Shown: positions 1 through 33,731, numbered from the stretch's first letter. The stretch: DNA of 33,731 nt from a virus (IMGVR_UViG_3300032332_000956:1-33731), one strand, 5' to 3'. Made by a program: numbers and translations. The notes: generated by a model from the letters alone, not told the origin.

Positions 1-123
1 TACCAGCAAACCCAAGGTACTGGCAATTTCCGACGGCCACCGCAAAGACGATCTGCTGTGCATGGCAATCCTCACCAAAGCACGACTGCAAGATCAGGGC
101 GCCATGTTTGCCGCTGAATATGA
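1..123. repeat. Terminal overlap copy 1 (identical to 33609-33731)
   Basis: TACCAGCAAACCC...GCTGAATATGA is exact at both ends and falls inside an open reading frame, so it is a circular-assembly overlap. Confidence 0.95.
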
Positions 124-325
124 AGCATGCTCAGGCATATTCTCCGATAACGAATTTTCCAAAAGGGCTGCATACGACGGAGTCATCATTCCAGCCAAGG
201 ACATCGTATTTACGCACAACAATCCTCTCTTCACGGGTGCAGCACAGGACGCGGAATTTAAACGCCACAACGCCAAAGAAAACTACGAGCTAGGCGAAAA
301 AATATTTAAGGAACGTAACCCGTGA
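1..325 (+). CDS. 3' part of the GT2-TPR-GT2 glycosyltransferase that starts at 32248 and wraps the origin
   Basis: ATG 62 equals ATG 33670, in frame with 32248; the 87-aa track ORF is only the C-terminus (SDNEF..HNNP). Confidence 0.9.
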   Translation, partial: TSKPKVLAISDGHRKDDLLCMAILTKARLQDQGAMFAAEYEACSGIFSDNEFSKRAAYDGVIIPAKDIVFTHNNPLFTGAAQDAEFKRHNAKENYELGEKIFKERNP

Positions 326-1086
326 TTCACACCCACAACGCACTGCGTTTGGGAGACAACCTGGTGCAGTTAAACTTTCTGCGTCGGCTATGCCTGCAAA
401 ATCCAGATATTGAGATCACGCACTATCACAATCCAGAGCTGTGCAAGTTTGAGGAGATTGATGCCTTGCGCAGCGATATGTCTTTACGGCTACGCATTCG
501 ACCAATCAGCGAGGCGCCAGCCGATAGCATTGATTCCTGGCGTAATACAGGCGGATATTGGGAGCGTCACCCCGACAAATTAAACTTCGCCAAATTTCAT
601 CTATGTTGGTTTGAGGAATTGGCCAGCAGGATGTGCGTCAAGAATCCGATCCAGAAAGTCGACGATCTTCTGTTTGACTATCCAGCCCTAGATTCCTTTA
701 TTCCGATGGCGCCAGACTGCGACGTCGTCGTGATAAATTCGCCAGGGCTGTCTGGTCAATTCACAAACTTTAACCCCGACGACTTTCGCAATCTAGTATC
801 TAAACTAGTTAGCAAGGGCCATCGGGTAATCAGCACAGTCGATACTGGATTATGCCCGGCATTTGATAACAAGAACGTGACTTGGATAGGTGCAACGGCT
901 GCCAAGGCAAAAGCTGTAATCGGAACATCCACCGGGCCAAGCTGGCCGTGCCTAAACGTTCACAACAAAAACGCCTTCCATTTGCTGTGCGCAGATACCG
1001 AGACAGTCATATTTACCGAACGCGGTCAGATGGCTAGGAGCGGATTTCACGCCCTGCACATTCTTGAAGAGGAGGGCTTGCTGTGA
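322..1086 (+). CDS. Putative GT-B fold (GT9/heptosyltransferase-like) glycosyltransferase
   Basis: N-terminal LRLGDNL motif and C-terminal AKAVIGTSTGPSW resemble the GT9 xGD and DSGPxH motifs; GTGA overlap with upstream gene. Confidence 0.55.
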   Translation: MIHTHNALRLGDNLVQLNFLRRLCLQNPDIEITHYHNPELCKFEEIDALRSDMSLRLRIRPISEAPADSIDSWRNTGGYWERHPDKLNFAKFHLCWFEELASRMCVKNPIQKVDDLLFDYPALDSFIPMAPDCDVVVINSPGLSGQFTNFNPDDFRNLVSKLVSKGHRVISTVDTGLCPAFDNKNVTWIGATAAKAKAVIGTSTGPSWPCLNVHNKNAFHLLCADTETVIFTERGQMARSGFHALHILEEEGLL

Positions 1087-1601
1087 AGAAGGAGCTGACT
1101 CAAGCGATGGATTTATTAGCGACTGATCCGGCCGTCAGGTTTATAGGCTACGGGGTAAAGATAGGCGGCCGGGCGGCAGGCACGCTCAATAATGTTGCGG
1201 ATTCACAACTGATCGAAACGCCTGTCGCTGAAAATCTGATGGTAGGACTGGCCACGGGCCTGAGTTTAGCCGGGCTAAAACCCGTCGTATTTATTGAGCG
1301 GATGGATTTTATTCTCAATGCACTGGACGCCATTGTTAATCACCTGGGCGCAGCCCAGCACATTAGCTGCAATCAATTCAAACCGGCCGCCATCTTGCGG
1401 GTAGTCATAGGAAACAAAAACAAGCCACTCTACACGGGGCCGACCCATACGCAGGACTTCACTGAAGCTCTTAGGAAGATGATCGATTTCTCAATCGTCG
1501 AACTGAAGAAGGAAAGCGTAGTCAGCGACTATCAAAGCGCACTGGACAGATTGAGCGCTGGGACATCCACCATGCTGGTCGAGCGAAAGGATGAGTGGTG
1601 A
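1083..1601 (+). CDS. ThDP-dependent enzyme, E1-beta/transketolase pyrimidine-binding domain only
   Basis: IETPVAENLMVGLATGLSLAGLKPVV, DFILNALDAIVN and GPTHTQ motifs; 172 aa with no transketolase C-terminal domain. Confidence 0.88.
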   Translation: MKKELTQAMDLLATDPAVRFIGYGVKIGGRAAGTLNNVADSQLIETPVAENLMVGLATGLSLAGLKPVVFIERMDFILNALDAIVNHLGAAQHISCNQFKPAAILRVVIGNKNKPLYTGPTHTQDFTEALRKMIDFSIVELKKESVVSDYQSALDRLSAGTSTMLVERKDEW

Positions 1602-2689
1602 AGCAGAACAAATACAGCGACCTCAAAATCTTTTCGTTCCCAAATAAGATCGCCAGCTTTCGCGATGATATTATCACCGCACCCATCTACGTGCGGATTA
1701 AACCGACGAATATCTGTAACCACGCCTGCCGTTTCTGCGTCTATTCTGACGGCACAACTCGGCCCAAGGATCGGCCTGACTTGCACCTACAGGCTGGCAT
1801 GCACACAAGCATGAACGAGCGGGACGTCATGCCACGAGATAAGGCGCTAGAATTAATAGAGGATCTTTCAAGCATGGGAACAAAAGCCGTCACGTTTAGC
1901 GGCGGTGGAGAGCCTTTGCTACATAAAGACATTGTCGAGATTATGACTAAGACAGTTTCGTCTGGTCTGGATCTGTCGATTATTACCAACGGCCAACTGC
2001 TCGCAGGGGAAAGGGCGGAAGTATTGGGCAAGGCAAAGTGGGTGAGGATTTCGATGGACTACACAAGCGCAAAGCAGATGGCTTCGAGCCGTAACGTGCC
2101 TGACAGATCGTTCGATTCAGTGATGCAAAACATAAAAAACTTTTCAAATACCAAAACGGAAAGCTGCGATCTTGGGATTAACTTTATTATTACCCGCTAC
2201 AATTACGAGGGTTTAGTTCCATTTGCCAAGCAGCTCAAAGATGCAGGCGTGAGTAACGTCCGCTTCTCGCCCGTCTACGTTCAAAACTTTAAAGAATATC
2301 ACAACACGATTGCGACTAGGGTGAGGGAACAATTGGTTGAGTGCCAATCATTCTGTGACGATGACTTCACCATTAACACAAGCTACGATCTAAATAGTCC
2401 AAGCAAGTCGCCCGTTCGGCCATTCCATCGCTGTCTTTACGCTCAAGCCGTTTGCGTAGTAGGTGCGGATCTTAATATCTACGCATGCCACAATACCGCA
2501 TACAGTAATCACGGCCGGATTGCCTCAATGAAGGATCAATCCTTTAGTCAGGCATGGTTCGGAGAAGAGGCGAGGGCATGGCATAAAAACTTTAACCCTG
2601 GCGTCAGTTGCCTGCATGAGTGCGCCAATCACGCGAAGGTGGCGCTGTTTGAAAAGCTGGCCACGGATAGCCACGACGCTTTTGTATGA
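1598..2689 (+). CDS. Radical SAM enzyme with C-terminal SPASM/Twitch-like domain
   Basis: CNHACRFC (CxxxCxxC), FSGGGEPLLH, ITNG; C-terminal C..GADLNIYAC..CLHEC; GTG 1598 overlaps the upstream stop. Confidence 0.92.
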   Translation: MKQNKYSDLKIFSFPNKIASFRDDIITAPIYVRIKPTNICNHACRFCVYSDGTTRPKDRPDLHLQAGMHTSMNERDVMPRDKALELIEDLSSMGTKAVTFSGGGEPLLHKDIVEIMTKTVSSGLDLSIITNGQLLAGERAEVLGKAKWVRISMDYTSAKQMASSRNVPDRSFDSVMQNIKNFSNTKTESCDLGINFIITRYNYEGLVPFAKQLKDAGVSNVRFSPVYVQNFKEYHNTIATRVREQLVECQSFCDDDFTINTSYDLNSPSKSPVRPFHRCLYAQAVCVVGADLNIYACHNTAYSNHGRIASMKDQSFSQAWFGEEARAWHKNFNPGVSCLHECANHAKVALFEKLATDSHDAFV

Positions 2690-3300
2690 ACAAGCAGGAT
2701 CTCATTGATTTTGAATTAAGAATCAAAGCTCTATTTGAGCAGGGTAAACTGCCTTATTTGATTCACCTATGCGGGGGGAATGAAGATCAACTGATCGAGA
2801 TATTTAAAGACATTAAGCCAGGCGATTGGATCTTCTCAAGCCATCGATCCCATTATCACTACCTGCTGGCTGGCGGAGATCCCAATTTGCTTAAAGAAAT
2901 GATTAGAGAAGGTCGCTCCATGTTTGTCTTTGACCGCAAACTGAATTTCTACACGTCCAGCGTGTTGGCTGGCACTTGCGGGATAGCGGCCGGAGTGGCG
3001 CACACATTAAAAGAGCAGGGAAGCTCGGCAAAAGTGTGGTGCTTCTTGGGCGATGGAGCTGAAGACGAGGGCCATTTTTATGAGGCCGTGAATTACGTGG
3101 CTGGGGCAGATCTACCCTGCACCTTTATTGTCGAGGATAACGATCGATCCGTAGATACACCGAAGGCAGCCAGGGGTAAGGCCACGATGATTTGGCCCGA
3201 TTGCGTGAAGCGATACCACTACACCCCAACATTTCCGCATGGTGGCGCTGGTTGTAAAGCGATGGTCACATTTGATCCGACTATCCGCCCGATATGGTGA
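2686..3300 (+). CDS. ThDP-dependent enzyme, minimal E1-alpha-like subunit
   Basis: HLCGGNE, SSHRSHYH and ThDP motif GDGAEDEG...EDN; only 204 aa. Confidence 0.9.
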   Translation: MNKQDLIDFELRIKALFEQGKLPYLIHLCGGNEDQLIEIFKDIKPGDWIFSSHRSHYHYLLAGGDPNLLKEMIREGRSMFVFDRKLNFYTSSVLAGTCGIAAGVAHTLKEQGSSAKVWCFLGDGAEDEGHFYEAVNYVAGADLPCTFIVEDNDRSVDTPKAARGKATMIWPDCVKRYHYTPTFPHGGAGCKAMVTFDPTIRPIW

Positions 3301-3317: not shown

Positions 3318-3764
3318 ATGCCAGCCGTCACCATGCTCGATCGTTTAATTGAAGCTGCTTTTCAAGAGCTTCTAACTGCAACCGTCACCGGGCCGACGTA
3401 TCACTTGTCGCACGATAAAACAGAAAACATGCCACCTTCGATCGTCATTAAAGCCACCCTGGGTACGGAAGAGCCGGTGCAAGGTTCTGGTGTGTTTAGC
3501 GTTCCAGTCGAAATCATTGTCGATGATTCCTACGACGACACAACTCTGGATGCCCACACCCAAAAGTGCTCAAAGATTCTACAGGTTTTCTATGACTCTA
3601 GCTCGCTGGCTACTAGGTTAAACGCCACGACCGCAATTGGATCTGCACGTTGTTATAACGCTAAGGTGGATTCTGTTGAGCCAGAGGCCGACGATGAAGA
3701 GCGCACAATGCGTCGCACCTATAAACTAGCAGTCATCGCATATCCCAATTCCATTGCGAGTTGA
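3318..3764 (+). CDS. Putative tail terminator/completion protein
   Basis: 148 aa, immediately upstream of the tail tube gene, PxIVI strand pattern; call mostly positional. Confidence 0.5.
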   Translation: MPAVTMLDRLIEAAFQELLTATVTGPTYHLSHDKTENMPPSIVIKATLGTEEPVQGSGVFSVPVEIIVDDSYDDTTLDAHTQKCSKILQVFYDSSSLATRLNATTAIGSARCYNAKVDSVEPEADDEERTMRRTYKLAVIAYPNSIAS

Positions 3765-3782: not shown

Positions 3783-4130
3783 ATGGCAGCCACAACAATC
3801 GGAACTTCTGGCCTACAATTCGGTATCACTGCTGAATCGGGTGGCCTCGTACAATCTTTCACCGAAACTCGTAACGTAGAGCGTGCAGAAATTAGGAACC
3901 AAAGCGGCGAGGTAGTCGGCGCGGCACTCTATAATCCTACTGATACCTTTGCTTTCTCCACCACCATCACGGGCGCTTATGCCACAACGGCAGGCGCAGT
4001 TCTTACAACCTTGGCAAACGCTACCAGCACGGGCGGTAAAATCGTAGTCGATAGCGTCACGGTTAATCGTACCAGCGAAGGATTCGTCACGGTGGACGTA
4101 TCGGCGACTCGATTCCCTAACATGAGCTAA
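3783..4130 (+). CDS. Putative major tail tube protein
   Basis: 115 aa, Thr/Ala/Gly-rich beta pattern, upstream of chaperone and tape measure, followed by a hairpin. Confidence 0.6.
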   Translation: MAATTIGTSGLQFGITAESGGLVQSFTETRNVERAEIRNQSGEVVGAALYNPTDTFAFSTTITGAYATTAGAVLTTLANATSTGGKIVVDSVTVNRTSEGFVTVDVSATRFPNMS

Positions 4131-15658: not shown

Positions 15659-15939
15659 AATCGGATTGGGCAACCGTCCTGACTGAGTATGTCGCTGGGT
15701 ATCGGCAGGAAGTAGTACCCGATGGCTGGTTAACTAAAAACCAGATCGCTGAGCTTTGGGGTAAGTCAGCAAATTACGCAAACAAACTTTTAGCTCATTT
15801 GGTTAAAGACGGCAGAGCCGAGAAAAAAAGTTATGTGGTTCGATTGCCTCACGTTGATTCAAAGGGGAAGAAATTTTTAGGCCATTGCCGAAAAATACCG
15901 CACTACCGCCTTATTTCAGGCAAATCGCCCAAATCCTAG
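15640..15939 (+). CDS. Winged-HTH DNA-binding protein
   Basis: AGGAGG before ATG 15640; WLTKNQIAELWGKSANYANKLLAHLVKDG. Confidence 0.6.
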   Translation: MAIPGVKSDWATVLTEYVAGYRQEVVPDGWLTKNQIAELWGKSANYANKLLAHLVKDGRAEKKSYVVRLPHVDSKGKKFLGHCRKIPHYRLISGKSPKS

Positions 15940-16079
15940 CGGTTCTTTTCTTTTTCCAGCTCTTTGACGAGCAGGGTGGTGATAAAAGCGGATAAACTTA
16001 ATCCGCCCTTCTTTGCTAGTCGCTCGCCGTTGCGTTTTACTTTTGGGTCGATTGTAAGGTTCGTTTTTACCTTTTTCAT
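15936..16079 (-). CDS. Ribbon-helix-helix repressor (47 aa), leftward
   Basis: MKKVKTNLTIDPKVKRNGERLAKKGGLSLSAFITTLLVKELEKEKNR*; CopG/Arc-type pattern; not in track. Confidence 0.8.
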   Translation of the reverse strand: MKKVKTNLTIDPKVKRNGERLAKKGGLSLSAFITTLLVKELEKEKNR

Positions 16080-16086
16080 AGGGAGC

Positions 16087-16114
16087 ATTGTATGCGTATT
16101 TATTACGCATTCAA
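16087..16114 (-). promoter_or_regulatory. Sigma70-type leaderless promoter with palindromic operator
   Basis: Minus strand TTGAAT-16-TACAAT-7-ATG; palindrome ATGCGTA-TTTAT-TACGCAT (16092-16110) occupies the spacer. Confidence 0.65.
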
Positions 16115-16352: not shown

Positions 16353-16721
16353 ATGAGCTTGGGGCGTCTCAACGAAACCGCCATGAAACTCCGCCAGGAG
16401 AACCGAGCTCTTTCCCTTCGCCAGCTAGGTGCAGCTTACGGGCTGGGCTACGTTCGGATTAAGCAAATGCAGGCACTGCCGGGATTCCCGCTGCTCGCGG
16501 GTAAGGTAATTCCGAGTGATTTTGATCGCTGGCGGCTAATGCAGACGACTGGCCTAAATTCACAGCATCGCGGAGATCGTCTACGCAGTGCCGTTGGTAA
16601 AGCTCATGCACTAACGTCGAAGAGTGGTTCACGAGTCGCATGGCGACAGATTGAGAACAGCCTGAAAGCCGCAGTCTCGTCACTCGGGTTACCCGAAGGG
16701 AGTGGAAGCAGTGACGTTTAA
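16353..16721 (+). CDS. Putative excisionase-like HTH protein
   Basis: LSLRQLGAAYGLGYVRIKQMQALPGFP...SDFDRW (AlpA/Xis pattern); convergent with and overlapping the integrase. Confidence 0.55.
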   Translation: MSLGRLNETAMKLRQENRALSLRQLGAAYGLGYVRIKQMQALPGFPLLAGKVIPSDFDRWRLMQTTGLNSQHRGDRLRSAVGKAHALTSKSGSRVAWRQIENSLKAAVSSLGLPEGSGSSDV

Positions 16722-17559
16722 GTCCGCAAATATCCAGCAAGCGACGCCAGCAAAGCGAGGCTCGCGTGTGGGGGACTTCGCATGTGATCTCGCGTCCCTC
16801 GGCCTTCATCTTGGCAAGCATGGGTTCAATGGCGGCCGGGATTGGGATACTAAAGGATTTGCCGGTTCCACCTTTGGGGCAGGGGAAGGTAAGCACACGG
16901 TTCTTCAAATCCACGCAATCCAGAGGAATCTGCGTCTCACGCAAACGGCAGCCAGTAGCCAGGGCGATCTCAAAGCTGACTCGCATCCATTCGGGCACGC
17001 CTTCAACGGCCAGAGCCTTCCGGGTGATTTTAATTTCATTGTCCGAAAACACGGGCTTAACCCGGCCGATCGGGCCTTTTTTAATTCGGTAATCCAGAAG
17101 GGCAACAGAATCCATTTTTCCAAGCAATCTACCTTGCCTGTGAATCCATTTGATAATCTTCAAATCTTGGCACGCTTGGTTGCGTCCAGCCTTACCGCCG
17201 GACGTGCGGGGAAGGCTTTGACGCCATCGCAAATAAATTTCACAATCATTTGCAGAAAACGCTTGCAGACTTATTCTTTTTTCATTAATAAACCTCGCAA
17301 GATGACGCCAGCAGTTTCTGTAATAAACTTTTGTCAGAGGGGAAACGGGATGATTTTCGATCAAATCATCAACCCATTCGTGGCCGCAATCTTTTCGCTT
17401 TTCATTAACGCCAAGTCGAGCGGCCTCGGCCGTTGCCTTGGCGCGGTGCAGGGTGTTGTCGATTCTGTAGCGGGTACTTTTAGTGCGCCACTTGCCGGAC
17501 GGATCTTTAAAACGAATGTAGAACCACGGATTGCCTTTCTTAATGTAGGAATAGGCCAT
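16459..17559 (-). CDS. int: Tyrosine integrase
   Basis: Catalytic set TGCRLRE (R), PKGG (K), FHSLR (HxxR), LVNH (H), HELY (Y); N-terminal arm-binding WFYIRFKDPSGKWRTKST. Confidence 0.95.
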   Translation of the reverse strand: MAYSYIKKGNPWFYIRFKDPSGKWRTKSTRYRIDNTLHRAKATAEAARLGVNEKRKDCGHEWVDDLIENHPVSPLTKVYYRNCWRHLARFINEKRISLQAFSANDCEIYLRWRQSLPRTSGGKAGRNQACQDLKIIKWIHRQGRLLGKMDSVALLDYRIKKGPIGRVKPVFSDNEIKITRKALAVEGVPEWMRVSFEIALATGCRLRETQIPLDCVDLKNRVLTFPCPKGGTGKSFSIPIPAAIEPMLAKMKAEGREITCEVPHTRASLCWRRLLDICGLKRHCFHSLRVTRVTRLRLSGCSQSVAMRLVNHSSTLVHELYQRHCVDDLRDAVNLGQSSALAASDQNHSELPYPRAAGIPAVPAFA

Positions 17560-29528: not shown

Positions 29529-30032
29529 GTGGACGATAGCGCACCAGATACAAGCTCAGTTTATTTTGATGACGGATCGATCAGCGTAATTGGTCGAGTT
29601 ATCAATGTGGGCCATCCCTATAATCAAACATACAACCTGGCATCCATTGTCGGCACTGCCCACGGCTGTGAGAACATGGGGCTGGGTAGCGTTATGTGGT
29701 GTTTCCTAAGTGCGTTCGGAATCTTGTTCGGAGTTGTTGCATGCCGAACAAGCCCCGTGCTTGGCGTAACTATTGCGTGCATGTCGATTGCTATCCTTTG
29801 GAAAATCATTCAAGGATCTTGCCGCCCTTACGTTGAGCTGAAATTTGGCGGCCTAAACAATCAAATTCTGTACATGAAAAAAACCGAACAAGCCGCCCAT
29901 TTGGCTTATGCCATCAATAAGGCAATTCATGACATGCACACACCACCCGAGCCTGGGCAGCCTGTCTACAACCCCATTTTTCCAGAACCTACAAACCCTG
30001 CTTCTCAAAGACCAATTTTTAGCCGGAACTAA
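29529..30032 (+). CDS. Moron: two-TM membrane protein (DUF6232-like)
   Basis: YFDDGSISV..QTYNLASI N-terminus, two hydrophobic helices, Pro-rich tail. Confidence 0.6.
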   Translation: MDDSAPDTSSVYFDDGSISVIGRVINVGHPYNQTYNLASIVGTAHGCENMGLGSVMWCFLSAFGILFGVVACRTSPVLGVTIACMSIAILWKIIQGSCRPYVELKFGGLNNQILYMKKTEQAAHLAYAINKAIHDMHTPPEPGQPVYNPIFPEPTNPASQRPIFSRN

Positions 30033-30992: not shown

Positions 30993-31883
30993 ATGGCCAA
31001 CTCAATCGGAACAACGAATGCCAATGTAATCGCTCAGAGGGCTCTCGAGATCCTCGTGGCGGATTACAGCTTCCTGAAGAACTCCGTCACGGATTTCAGC
31101 AGCGAAGCGGCTAAATACAACGCCTCGATCTACACCCACCGCATCTCTGCGACGACCGCCCAGGACTACTCCCAGGCTAACGGTTACGTAGCATCTGCGA
31201 CCACTCAGACAGACGTGCAGATCACTCTCAACAAGTTCAAGCACGTTTCGTACTCTGTGGACGATCAAGAGCGCACCAGCTCCAACATCAACCTGATCGA
31301 GCGTTTCGCCGGCGCAGCCGCGCACGCGCTCGGATTGCAGATGGTTGGAGATTTGCTCGCTCTCGTGACTTCCTCCACCTTCACCAGCGCATTGACGGTT
31401 GCTTCCAGCGCCTTCTCCTACCGCTCGGTAGTGTCGGCCGGAATCACCCTCAACAACAACAACGCCCCGGTCAACGGCCGGTACGCAGTTCTTAATCCCA
31501 GCTTCTACGGCGCTCTCTTGAACGACAGCACCGTGGTGGCCAATCCCCAGATCACTGGCGACCTCGTTCGCACGGCTGGGATCGGCAACGTGGCTGGATT
31601 CAACATTAACCAGTACAGCGCAGTGCCTTCCAACAGCATCACGCTCGGCGGATTCTTCGCCCAGCAGGAAGCCTTGTTGATTGCGGCCCGTGTTCCTGAA
31701 GTTCCGACCGGCGTTCCCATCCCTGGGGACATCTCGGTTGTGACGGAACCCCGCACTGGCCTATCCGTCCAAGTTCGTGAGAACTACGACGTGGTCAAGG
31801 GCCAGCTGCAACGCACCTACGCTCTGATCTACGGCGTGAAAGCCGGAGAGCCGAACAGCCTCGTGCGTATCAACGGTAGCTAA
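30993..31883 (+). CDS. Major capsid protein (HK97 fold, P22-coat-like)
   Basis: AGGAG RBS; ITLNKFKHVSYSVDD, GRYAVLNP, GNVAGFNI, LIYGVK; strongly biased codons; followed by a strong hairpin. Confidence 0.88.
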   Translation: MANSIGTTNANVIAQRALEILVADYSFLKNSVTDFSSEAAKYNASIYTHRISATTAQDYSQANGYVASATTQTDVQITLNKFKHVSYSVDDQERTSSNINLIERFAGAAAHALGLQMVGDLLALVTSSTFTSALTVASSAFSYRSVVSAGITLNNNNAPVNGRYAVLNPSFYGALLNDSTVVANPQITGDLVRTAGIGNVAGFNINQYSAVPSNSITLGGFFAQQEALLIAARVPEVPTGVPIPGDISVVTEPRTGLSVQVRENYDVVKGQLQRTYALIYGVKAGEPNSLVRINGS

Positions 31884-31890
31884 TTCACTC

Positions 31891-31933
31891 GGGGAGGGCG
31901 GTGGGCTGAAAGGCTCACCGCCCTTTCCACTTT
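31891..31933 (+). terminator. Hairpin/terminator after the major capsid gene
   Basis: GGGGAGGGCGGTGGGCT-GAAA-GGCTCACCGCCCTTTCC then ACTTT. Confidence 0.7.
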
Positions 31934-31946
31934 AAGAAATCCTCAC

Positions 31947-32246
31947 ATGTCCGAATTTACAGAAGCACTTAAGGAAAGTCTGGCCGCCCTTTATACTCAA
32001 ACTGGAACAGCGGCCACCATTGGTTCTACTTCAGTCACCGGCATTCTCTCTACTGTTACCCGCAAAGAAAACGTGGATCTTGGCGGGTATGATCTGGATC
32101 TAAACTCCACCTTTACCATCGACGTGGCAAACCTGGCCACAGCTCCCACGATCGGATCTATTCTGCTGGCTAACTCGGTCAGTTATCGGGTGGCGTCGAT
32201 TGATACTTCTATCGGTAGTTACGTGCTTGGGTTGCGAGAGGTTTAG
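31947..32246 (+). CDS. Head-tail joining/closure protein (gpFII-like)
   Basis: 99 aa, beta-rich, PTIGSIL...YRVASI; directly after the capsid gene. Confidence 0.6.
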   Translation: MSEFTEALKESLAALYTQTGTAATIGSTSVTGILSTVTRKENVDLGGYDLDLNSTFTIDVANLATAPTIGSILLANSVSYRVASIDTSIGSYVLGLREV

Positions 32247-32247
32247 A

Positions 32248-33731
32248 ATGGCAACTCGAAATCCTAAAATCTCCATCTACATGATCGCCGGGCACGAGGC
32301 CCAATTTATCAACCGCTGCCTTACCGCCTTTAAGCCATACTGCGACGAGCTGGTTGTGTGCATTGCTCAGGGCGGCCGACCTGACGATGGCACTCGGGCG
32401 ATTGCCGAGAAGTCAGGCGCCAAGATAGTCGAATATAAAAACGCACCGGCAGGGGCGAGCTGGCCGCACGTCGACAACTTTTCCGCTGCCCGCAACACGG
32501 CGCTGGATGCCTGTACAGGGGACTATGCGGTATGGGTGGATTGCGATGACTTGCCGCATAAAGACCTCAAAAACGCTTTTAAAAGGGGCGTAGAAGCATT
32601 TGAACAGAATCCGAAGCTTGGCATCTATGCGGGCGTCTATGACGTTATAAACGCCAAATTAAGGCCAGTACGCGAGCGCATGGTAAGGCGTATAGACGGC
32701 GTATGGTCTGGGAGGTGGAACTACGCAGTGCATGAGGCGCTGTTGCCTAATGCTGGGCTGGAATCCGTGGGCGAGCAGGCAGTGTGGGTAGAGCATCACC
32801 CTGGCGGATATAAGCCAAACAGCGCCGATCGGAATCTTCGCATTCTTCAAGGCCAGTTAAGCGAAGCAGGCAAGTATGCCTACTACTATCAGCAAGAACT
32901 TTTCTTAGGTAATCGCAGGACTGAATCTGAGCCTTGGTCACACGTTGCCGCTGTCTGGCCAGGGCAAGAGGCAACGCTGGCTTACGAGGCCGCCTGCAAT
33001 CAGGCCACAGCTACGCAAGATCGCACAGTCAGAATTAGCTTATACCAAAAGGCACATCAGATGAACCCTGGGCGCAGGGAAGCGATTTACTTTTTAGCCA
33101 GGGAAGAGGCCAGCGTGGGTGCGTGGTTACAGGCTTACCACTTGCTAAAATCGGCCATGGTTCAGCCCGATCCGGGCGTAAAGATCTGGAACGCCCAACG
33201 CACCGTGTACGACTTTGAGTGCATCGATCTGTACCTAGCGGCCTGTAAAGCCGTCGGAGATACAACGGAAGCGGAAAAGATTGAGAACATGTGGAGGGCA
33301 CAAAAGCCCGTAAAGATTAGCGTATGCCACGCAACTCGAGGACGCCCGCAAGAAGCGATTAACGCCCGCATCTTGTGGATGAAAAAGGCGGCAGATCCAG
33401 CGTCAATTGAGTGGATCTATTCAGTCGACGATGACGATCCCAAAGCCGACATGTTGAAAAATTGGGGAATTGTAAAGGGCAAGGGCGGGTGTATTGCGGC
33501 TTGGAACAGGGCGGCCGAAGTAGCCCGCGGTGAAATTATCATTCAAGGCTCCGACGATTGGGATCCTCCGCTGCATTGGGACAAAATAATCAGCGACAGG
33601 ATTGGCGATACCAGCAAACCCAAGGTACTGGCAATTTCCGACGGCCACCGCAAAGACGATCTGCTGTGCATGGCAATCCTCACCAAAGCACGACTGCAAG
33701 ATCAGGGCGCCATGTTTGCCGCTGAATATGA
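32248..33731 (+). CDS. Double glycosyltransferase GT2-TPR-GT2 (561 aa, continues to 325 across the origin)
   Basis: Translated by hand with no stop: KISIYMIA, DDGT, NFSAARN, WVDCDD, VHE, RNLRIL; TPR-like helices (NPGRREAIYFLA); second GT-A domain ISVCHATRGRP, VDDDD, AWN, GSDDW. Confidence 0.9.
   Translation, partial: MATRNPKISIYMIAGHEAQFINRCLTAFKPYCDELVVCIAQGGRPDDGTRAIAEKSGAKIVEYKNAPAGASWPHVDNFSAARNTALDACTGDYAVWVDCDDLPHKDLKNAFKRGVEAFEQNPKLGIYAGVYDVINAKLRPVRERMVRRIDGVWSGRWNYAVHEALLPNAGLESVGEQAVWVEHHPGGYKPNSADRNLRILQGQLSEAGKYAYYYQQELFLGNRRTESEPWSHVAAVWPGQEATLAYEAACNQATATQDRTVRISLYQKAHQMNPGRREAIYFLAREEASVGAWLQAYHLLKSAMVQPDPGVKIWNAQRTVYDFECIDLYLAACKAVGDTTEAEKIENMWRAQKPVKISVCHATRGRPQEAINARILWMKKAADPASIEWIYSVDDDDPKADMLKNWGIVKGKGGCIAAWNRAAEVARGEIIIQGSDDWDPPLHWDKIISDRIGDTSKPKVLAISDGHRKDDLLCMAILTKARLQDQGAMFAAEY
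33609..33731. repeat. Terminal overlap copy 2 (identical to 1-123)
   Basis: Exact 123-bp match. Confidence 0.95.

Follow-up and report, generated by a model that had tools for sequence, protein, structure and literature searches.

A five-gene slot between head and tail genes

The window analysed here, the whole stretch IMGVR_UViG_3300032332_000956:1-33731 with its 33,731 nucleotides, holds a phage genome that is complete and closes to a 33,608-bp circle; the terminal repeat measures 123 nt, bases 1-123 being a duplicate of 33609-33731; the virus record carries direct terminal repeats and is rated 100% complete. The phage is temperate, and its gene set includes lambda-type terminase and portal genes, a P22-coat-type capsid gene, a tape measure gene and a tyrosine integrase (Pfam/PHROGs). 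Between the head-closure gene and the tail genes lies the slot that is the subject of this report. It holds, in this order, a glycosyltransferase (GT) with two GT2 domains and a tetratricopeptide repeat (TPR)-like part between them (GT2-TPR-GT2), a GT-B protein, the beta subunit of a thiamine diphosphate (ThDP)-dependent mini E1 pair, a radical S-adenosylmethionine (SAM) enzyme and the mini E1-alpha. Four RTGA junctions (GTGA 322-325, GTGA 1083-1086, GTGA 1598-1601 and ATGA 2686-2689) chain the five genes, an arrangement already described in a sequence-only reading of this stretch and confirmed by the coordinates and family matches; the third junction is a 4-nt overlap provided that the radical SAM gene starts at GTG 1598, a second in-frame GTG being present at 1595. 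The ATG of the first glycosyltransferase (32248) is found 1 nt past the head-closure stop at 32246, and E1-alpha ends at 3300, the 148-amino-acid (aa) gene beginning 17 nt further on at 3318; next come the putative tail tube gene (115 aa) and the gene for the tape measure.

Altogether 59 open reading frames (ORFs) were scanned, 30 with Pfam and PHROGs and 29 further small ones with PHROGs. No E2, E3, nucleoside diphosphate (NDP)-sugar dehydratase or nucleotidyltransferase was found among them, which confirms the earlier remark that E2/E3 and such a dehydratase are missing. The cassette genes, which are translationally coupled, lie 3' of the capsid gene and of a strong hairpin (Table 1), and no promoter-like motif of their own was found for the head-closure and cassette genes downstream of this hairpin. 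No membrane segment is evident in the cassette proteins, the best 19-residue hydropathy being 0.84-1.71 with the highest value in E1-beta.

Table 1. Genes of the slot, its borders and neighbouring features in the window.
Feature	Position	Strand	Remarks
GT2-TPR-like-GT2 glycosyltransferase, 5' part	32248..33731	+	constant slot gene; predicted to prime protein glycosylation; 561 aa in all
Same glycosyltransferase, 3' end	1..325	+	continues over the circular join
Compact GT-B protein, GT9 (heptosyltransferase) fold, 254 aa	322..1086	+	predicted transferase of modified heptose
Mini E1-beta, 172 aa, ThDP pyrimidine-binding domain only	1083..1601	+	PF02779
Radical SAM enzyme, 363 aa	1598..2689	+	PF04055; predicted keto-sugar maker
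Mini E1-alpha, 204 aa, ThDP diphosphate-binding domain	2686..3300	+	PF00676
148-aa putative tail gene	3318..3764	+	right slot border, survey anchor; role from position; without family match
115-aa putative tail tube protein	3783..4130	+	candidate acceptor; role from position; without family match
Major capsid protein	30993..31883	+	candidate glycan acceptor, C-terminal Ser; Pfam/PHROG matches
Strong hairpin 3' of the capsid gene	31891..31928	+	-34.6 kcal/mol, z -6.3
Head-closure gene	31947..32246	+	left slot border; PF05354, E 0.0014, under the Pfam cut-off

A constant glycosyltransferase with exchangeable modules

The first gene of the slot is read across the circular join without an internal stop. 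Its product has an N-terminal GT2 domain (PF00535, E 5e-13) and a C-terminal glycosyltransferase domain (phrog_14945, E 1.5e-6), and D98-x-D100-D101 as well as S435-D436-D437-W438 are invariant across 9 homologues. Where a TPR region had been proposed between the GT2 domains, the predicted model has nine helices, although no Pfam TPR match was obtained for this protein. With the model of a 96%-identical homologue (L008), the six best Foldseek matches were the peptide glycosyltransferases SunS/ThuS (E 1.8e-11), the TM-score being only ~0.36 over the whole three-domain model; the first glycosyltransferase is thus predicted, at the level of the model, to resemble peptide glycosyltransferases. It shares with the glycocin glycosyltransferases SunS/ThuS a GT-A domain followed by helical repeats, but has in addition a second GT2 domain at the C-terminus and remains far below the TIGR04195 cut-off (19.8 vs 350 bits), and no glycocin precursor or ABC exporter gene was seen among the scanned ORFs. 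A tblastn search (E 1e-5) of 50,697 phage records returned three environmental records and no mycobacteriophage, and the collection scan estimate for the patterns of this glycosyltransferase is ~860 viral stretches.

For a survey of the slot, 77 loci were fetched via the flanking 148-aa tail gene alone, so as not to select for the cassette, and 70 of these span the head-closure to tail interval, the other 7 being truncated or having too little anchor match. The slot is positioned between head-closure and tail genes in all 70 spanning loci, the first glycosyltransferase is kept in every one, and it is always accompanied by a module with a further glycosyltransferase-like gene, of which eight types were distinguished. 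The four genes of the window follow the first glycosyltransferase in 38 loci, in line with the expectation that they would co-occur in relatives. Another four loci have the same GT9-fold gene and radical SAM gene, with a minimal split transketolase-like pair and a methyltransferase replacing the E1 pair; 25 have a methyltransferase or a GT47-radical SAM fusion together with a different putative GT9-like gene; and three have other putative glycosyltransferases (GT77-like, labelled by eye), with or without GT47. First glycosyltransferases that are 98-99% identical can nevertheless be followed by different modules, and on a quick tree of this protein the module label changes 27 times (minimum 7; shuffled mean 30.3). 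The 70 loci contain 66 different sequences of the glycosyltransferase, many of them close relatives, so the counts are those of loci and not of independent events. The five genes, taken earlier for one cassette, are therefore linked but do not form a fixed unit, the first gene being constant and the module swappable. The slot has the layout of a variable glycan locus, in which a constant primer would be combined with exchangeable finishing steps. In one alternative module of the same slot (L260:2442-4289), a GT47 domain and a radical SAM domain of another kind are joined in a single 616-aa protein.

The 254-aa GT-B protein gave no Pfam, PHROG or NCBIfam match, PF01075 being unmatched at E 0.01. 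Its model (predicted local distance difference test, pLDDT, 96.5) was matched by Foldseek to WaaC (E 3e-7), and the best GT9 alignment (VIA) had a Z-score of 14.1 and a root-mean-square deviation (rmsd) of 4.0 over 235 residues; WaaF, a Veillonella GT9 and TibC reached Z 13-14, compared with 10.0 for the best UDP-sugar epimerase. The protein is predicted from this model to have the GT9 heptosyltransferase fold, and the sugar that it would transfer is a modified heptose. It resembles WaaC/WaaF and the protein heptosyltransferase TibC in a GT-B fold that is superimposable over nearly the whole model, but it is ~70 residues shorter than WaaC and only 12-15% identical to these enzymes.

The radical SAM enzyme and its thiamine diphosphate partners

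The radical SAM enzyme has the CX3CX2C motif at Cys40, Cys44 and Cys47 and further cysteines at positions 279, 297, 338 and 342, all seven being invariant in 11 homologues; the four C-terminal cysteines are the number expected for one auxiliary cluster. PF13186 was matched on its homologues, and the protein fits the SPASM/Twitch subgroup criteria. It scored under the cut-off of every NCBIfam family among the best 25 of 57 shown. The best PDB match was BlsE (E 2.4e-11), over the core only and with a BlsE family score of 46.7 against a cut-off of 400 bits; DesII was only weakly matched in the PDB search, and BtrN, NeoN and AviX12 were absent from the NCBIfam and PDB results. The subfamily comprises 3,320 proteins at E 1e-30 among 8,000 candidates. 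A homologue in a 199-kb viral contig is split by an intein (L057:5145-7265), from which a close relative (L450) is free.

Both E1 subunits are cut to their cofactor-binding domains yet keep the ThDP motifs. E1-alpha, with an E1_dh match in Pfam, has the G122-D123-G124...N152 motif, R54 and P184-H185 conserved in 20 homologues, and E1-beta, which matches Transket_pyr only, has an invariant E50 and a near-invariant H122 in 14 homologues; GDG...N in alpha and Glu and His in beta are the ThDP-binding or ThDP-activating residues, as in the E1 of pyruvate dehydrogenase (PDH). E1-beta is without the C-terminal domain, the part that docks on E2, and aligns only to the N-terminal part of solved beta subunits of 324-369 aa. 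Many relatives have the alpha and beta parts in one fused protein (phrog_34187), and the collection scan estimate for the mini-E1 patterns is ~750 viral stretches. The best family matches of the pair are PDH E1 alpha and beta, far under the cut-offs (86 vs 393.85 and 46.2 vs 321 bits). In a quick tree with a long-branch warning, the mini-E1 sequences form their own clade on a long branch from conventional E1 (Shimodaira-Hasegawa-like approximate likelihood ratio test, SH-aLRT, 90); E1-alpha is 28-32% identical to the three conventional E1-alpha sequences in the tree (two E2-linked, one unannotated), and the identity of mini-E1 to seven full-length sequences is 27-35%. The separation from housekeeping dehydrogenases, on which the earlier interpretation depended, is thereby upheld. 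A housekeeping PDH role was rejected because of the sub-cut-off scores, the truncated beta subunit and the separate clade. The pair is an orphan alpha/beta pair, without E2/E3, inside a sugar gene cluster.

A ThDP pair is present in all 82 viral radical SAM locus entries (77 E1-type and five transketolase-type), and a ThDP enzyme of the E1, split transketolase or acetolactate synthase (ALS)/YerE type is found in 73 of the 80 bacterial and archaeal radical SAM loci, in 53 of them within 1.5 kb. From the seven cellular loci without a ThDP enzyme, three have a DegT aminotransferase and heptose genes within 1.6 kb, and four are short or end at the gene; DegT aminotransferases act on ring ketones. 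Conversely, among 24 distant viral mini-E1 loci a radical SAM gene is found in 13 and a zinc alcohol dehydrogenase gene in 11, with both in none, and among 80 fused-E1 viral loci the dehydrogenase occurs in 74, radical SAM in one and neither in five (contig-edge) loci, the two sets overlapping and containing near-duplicates. The oxidase partner changes inside well-supported E1 clades, L130 being placed among dehydrogenase-partnered sequences and L058 being sister to L066. The simplest reading is that both the radical SAM enzyme and the zinc dehydrogenase oxidise a sugar hydroxyl, and the replacement of one by the other beside the mini-E1 fits the proposed oxidation. E1-, transketolase- and ALS/YerE-type ThDP enzymes have all been reported to branch keto-sugars, the transketolase case being proposed only (PMC12247030). 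Taken as comparative evidence, the swap of the ThDP class, the DegT enzyme in ThDP-less loci and the mutual exclusion of radical SAM and dehydrogenase are three substitutions that point to keto-sugar chemistry. The view put forward in the sequence-only reading, that the radical SAM enzyme and the ThDP pair would act as one sugar-tailoring unit, is supported by these ThDP neighbours and by the dehydrogenase swap.

In the cellular loci L167-L233 (many Lachnospiraceae-type and DPANN archaeal records), a recurring operon combines a split transketolase and two radical SAM paralogues with HldE-, GmhA- and GmhB-like genes, and no published description of such an operon was found in the literature searched; a second radical SAM gene occurs in 51 of the 80 cellular loci. 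The module also adjoins TPR-containing proteins in two cellular loci (L160:594-2618, with a GT41 match, and L409:3195-7262, judged by eye), which is consistent with protein glycosylation in cells.

The proposed glycan, its target and rival explanations

The gene chain, the catalytic motifs, the module exchange, the substitutions between E1 and transketolase and between radical SAM and dehydrogenase, and the linkage to heptose genes are read from the sequences, and the folds of both glycosyltransferases are predicted. Together they give about an even chance that the virion proteins of the phage itself carry a glycan built by the five slot genes, with a C-branched sugar derived from a host nucleotide-heptose as its likely cap; the nucleotide and the branch position are left open in this estimate. 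The fixed GT2-TPR-GT2 enzyme would bind a virion protein via its helical repeats and add the first one or two sugars from host NDP-sugars. The radical SAM enzyme would convert host ADP- (or GDP-) heptose to a keto-heptose, most likely by dehydrogenation, with a radical dehydration as the alternative. The mini E1 pair would then decarboxylate pyruvate on ThDP and transfer the acetyl unit to the ketone, resulting in a C-branched nine-carbon sugar nucleotide, where a transketolase-type pair would add a hydroxyacetyl unit. Finally, the GT9-fold enzyme would move the branched sugar onto the primed glycan. Such a pathway is not self-contained, contrary to what had been suggested, since it is without all nucleotide-sugar synthesis and most likely uses host nucleotide-heptose. 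A wider proposal, tentative and with the balance tilted against it, is that these are phages with 'virion serotypes', in which a fixed priming transferase is combined with rapidly exchanged modules; in the window module, radical SAM oxidation of host ADP-heptose would be followed by branching on a minimal two-domain ThDP enzyme to a nine-carbon sugar exposed on the virion, a route that, with its three ThDP classes and two oxidases as exchangeable parts, would be common to many phages, bacteria and archaea.

A host nucleotide-heptose is the likely substrate because of the heptose-gene linkage and the GT9 fold, the ADP form fitting GT9. Of the 80 cellular radical SAM loci, 52 have heptose-pathway-like genes (HldE-, GmhA-, GmhB- or HddA-like), which lie within 5 kb in 39 and include an HldE-like gene of full length in 44, and such genes occur in 66 of the 80 fused-E1 viral loci as well; in the cultured cyanophages S-SM2 and P-TIM68 they are found one or two genes past the E1 fusion. 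The nearest cellular copy of the module, with the same gene order and with E1 and radical SAM proteins 61-69% identical to those of the window, belongs to a Verrucomicrobia metagenome-assembled genome (L154) and is located near HddA/HddC-like genes of the GDP pathway.

We infer the virion as the target from the slot position and the fold; it is probably the correct one, the host surface being a minor possibility and DNA a slight one. A weak signal comes from the C-termini: all 10 distinct ends of the tube protein among relatives are Ser or Thr, six of eight capsid ends are Ser, and Ser prevails as the last residue in the capsid and tube proteins, the 148-aa tail protein, the 98-aa head protein and the 367-aa putative fibre protein of the relatives; the glycosylation site in phage Che8 is reportedly a serine. 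Unrelated phages (L055, L056 and L061) have a mini-E1 and dehydrogenase cassette within a few genes after the capsid gene. In these three (L061:4799-15344, L056:3302-9176 and L055:2317-9873) the zinc dehydrogenase stands with a fused mini-E1, and a short-chain dehydrogenase/reductase (SDR) gene is present too in L055 and L061; L056 and L061 add an MptE/Maf-like gene, and L061 also has a GT9-methyltransferase fusion, a sulfotransferase and an adenosine phosphosulfate (APS) kinase.

Several observations weigh against this reading, with respect both to the sugar and to the target. For representative proteins, a heptose family ranks first or second among the matches, but the scores stay under the curated cut-offs; some 30 of the 80 cellular loci bear Lachnospiraceae-type record titles and cannot count as independent; other glycan-island genes may likewise be frequent near heptose genes; and heptose genes are found at only three of the nine closest genome-collection loci (L154, L158 and L160), two of these being of the GDP-pathway type. 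In the 25 alternative modules, the 221-aa gene had no match to the GT-B profile (probability 0.8%), its GT9 likeness resting on motifs and one Atlas cluster. The zinc dehydrogenase could also act later than the ThDP enzyme and, like Pau7 (PMC4753412), reduce the acetyl branch; an SDR, present in 31 of 80 loci, could do this in its stead. As to the target, WaaC-type GT9 enzymes act on lipopolysaccharide (LPS), and the temperate nature of the phage weighs in the same direction. The Ser signal is weakened by capsid proteins with a final Ala, seen in 26 of 227 (redundant) loci as well as in L046, and by a candidate tube protein of the cassette-free phage P8625, the last residue of which is Ser too. 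A podophage-like clade (~30 loci among L392-L430, plus L069-L078) has E1-alpha, E1-beta and radical SAM after recT and rusA, in the replication arm and on the strand opposite to the virion genes, with a GT9-like gene ~7 kb off, and large phages hold the module in general sugar islands; because of this clade and these islands, the module is not tied to structural operons everywhere. The virion coat, already proposed in the sequence-only reading, retains the resemblance of the lead glycosyltransferase to peptide glycosyltransferases in its favour and has the replication-arm clade against it. Members of this clade (L402:2545-11902 and relatives) have genomes of ~35-50 kb and also a GT-A-like gene in the module, the GT9-like gene being upstream of it.

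If the glycan is on the virion, its chemistry may still differ: an aldehyde could be made, or a hexose, uronic acid or pentose nucleotide used, with the ThDP pair extending or trimming the chain. For ThDP enzymes, aldehydes are easier acceptors than ketones (PMC12247030), the substrate proposed for the everninomicin E1-like pair is a 4-keto-pentose nucleotide (PMC10338323), BlsE, the best PDB match of the radical SAM enzyme, is a cytosylglucuronate decarboxylase, and UDP-glucuronate-decarboxylase-like genes lie near the module in L158 and L159 (by eye from generic epimerase matches). The GT9 fold and the heptose-gene linkage, the DegT gene beside radical SAM where the ThDP enzyme is missing, and the restriction of the BlsE match to the generic core make this variant unlikely. 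A further rival, distinctly unlikely as well, is that the cassette alters an envelope glycan of the host, such as the LPS core, during late infection or from the prophage and so blocks superinfection or the binding of progeny to debris. It would agree with the tyrosine integrase, with the building of the LPS core by the GT9 enzymes WaaC and WaaF, with the presence of the same module in cellular surface-glycan islands and with the usual reading of cyanophage sugar islands as host-surface modification (PMC12801897); however, the genes are coupled to the head-closure gene, no separate promoter was found, neither a membrane glycosyltransferase nor a flippase is encoded, the fixed gene is like peptide glycosyltransferases, and the slot position is kept throughout the 70 loci.

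Phage glycosyltransferases often glycosylate DNA (PMC12619734) and one clade has the module beside recombination genes, so a sugar hypermodification of the phage DNA against restriction enzymes was also considered. It is highly improbable, given that the scanned ORFs include no base hydroxylase, hydroxymethylase or DNA polymerase and that both glycosyltransferase models match peptide and LPS transferases best. There is hardly any probability left for the E1 pair as an auxiliary metabolic gene that boosts host PDH and has nothing to do with the glycosyltransferases: its best family matches are indeed those to PDH E1 alpha and beta, but at scores far under the cut-offs and with a beta subunit deprived of the E2-docking domain, no E2/E3 is found, a transketolase-type pair replaces it in the same slot, and it is tied to sugar genes and forms a long-branch clade of its own.

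The mycobacteriophages Che8 (gp110), Corndog (gp38) and Myrna are known for virion glycosylation, with capsid and tail tube C-termini as reported acceptors (PMC12363180, PMC12619734, PMC11256854 and PMC11600133, citing Freeman et al. 2023). The window is similar to these systems in its phage-encoded glycosyltransferases (next to an O-methyltransferase in cluster O), and several of its virion proteins end in Ser, which is a weak signal; it differs in that its fixed glycosyltransferase has no sequence match there, that the cassette encodes predicted sugar-remodelling enzymes and swaps within a population, and that its host is probably Gram-negative. An orphan E1-type ThDP pair among sugar genes, without E2/E3, is likewise a feature of the alphaKADH2 pairs (AviB1/AviB2, Pau11/Pau12, KbDH-alpha/beta and EvdU5/EvdS3), which together with YerE-like enzymes and the split transketolases of miharamycin and amipurimycin represent the same three ThDP classes that interchange beside the radical SAM enzyme of the window type (PMC12247030, PMC4753412, PMC10338323). 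The window subunits are, in contrast, minimal, their likely substrate is a heptose nucleotide and their carrier is a virus. The known branching systems use 4,6-dehydratases or a decarboxylase for the keto-sugar (PMC10338323), whereas the window has neither a keto-sugar-forming dehydratase nor such a decarboxylase, and a radical SAM enzyme or, in relatives, a zinc dehydrogenase would take this part. The sugar islands of S-SM2 and P-TIM68 share a fused mini E1 alpha-beta, 52-54% identical to the window alpha, next to heptose-pathway-like genes, but have a zinc alcohol dehydrogenase as partner and heptose-pathway genes of their own, and lie outside the head-tail operon; the fusion is annotated as 'transketolase central region-containing protein', and no functional study of these islands was found in the literature searched. 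By analogy, the window may work like mycobacteriophage virion glycosylation joined to sugar branching of the AviB/YerE type.

Neither a phage pathway of this kind nor a radical SAM and ThDP route from heptose was found described in the literature searched (subscription papers and supplements being outside its scope); supplementary gene tables of cyanophage and virome papers, likewise outside the search, could mention such genes. The locus contributes the combination of a probable sugar-branching module and a swappable slot, together with natural swaps that constrain the mechanism. Measured virion glycosylation comes, in the same literature, only from mycobacteriophages with plain glycosyltransferases. 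If the proposal is true, small phages of a common group produce an exotic particle sugar of their own and vary it within a population, and a comparison of the natural module variants could test the selective pressure (host attachment, grazers or extracellular defences). A large, so far unassigned radical SAM subfamily would gain a function, and very small ketone-accepting ThDP enzymes would become available, a class in which a 2025 review lists no solved alphaKADH2 or transketolase structure (PMC12247030). The proposal also speaks against annotating phage genes of this type as pdhA/pdhB or transketolase metabolic genes. The chemistry involves four small soluble enzymes and is testable in vitro without phage culture.

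Host and other features of the genome

The host is probably Gram-negative. The best cultured match of the capsid protein, phage P8625 at 30% identity, and the module copy in L154 hint at a host in Verrucomicrobiota; the tube protein had no match among cultured phages, and no tRNA gene was found in the phage genome. Among 401 genomes of the phylum of L154, capsid homologues were detected in 20, all at <=32% identity, and no close prophage was found.

Scans for sigma-70 promoters and terminators gave site counts no higher than in shuffled sequences, and a sigma-70-like 9/12 match at 32242 was taken as chance. All six plus-strand TTGACAC sites (3761, 8302, 10575, 13509, 27541 and 30034) start ~17-22 nt before a late-gene start codon, namely those of the tube gene, a 499-aa tail gene, a 111-aa gene, a 54-aa lysis-region gene, the 98-aa head gene and the scaffold gene, and the 148-aa and 367-aa genes have TGACAA variants in front of them, at 3297 and 11063. 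This placement suggests a late-promoter or start-associated element, the TTGACAC count itself being barely over chance (7 on both strands vs 3.2 expected); no site of this type precedes the head-closure or cassette genes. In the gap between the portal and scaffold genes, a 167-aa gene with a hydrophobic stretch (29529-30032), present only in some relatives and without a family match, is possibly a moron. At 16353-17559 the integrase gene, on the minus strand, converges on a plus-strand 122-aa gene, and an Arc-like repressor is encoded at 15936-16088.

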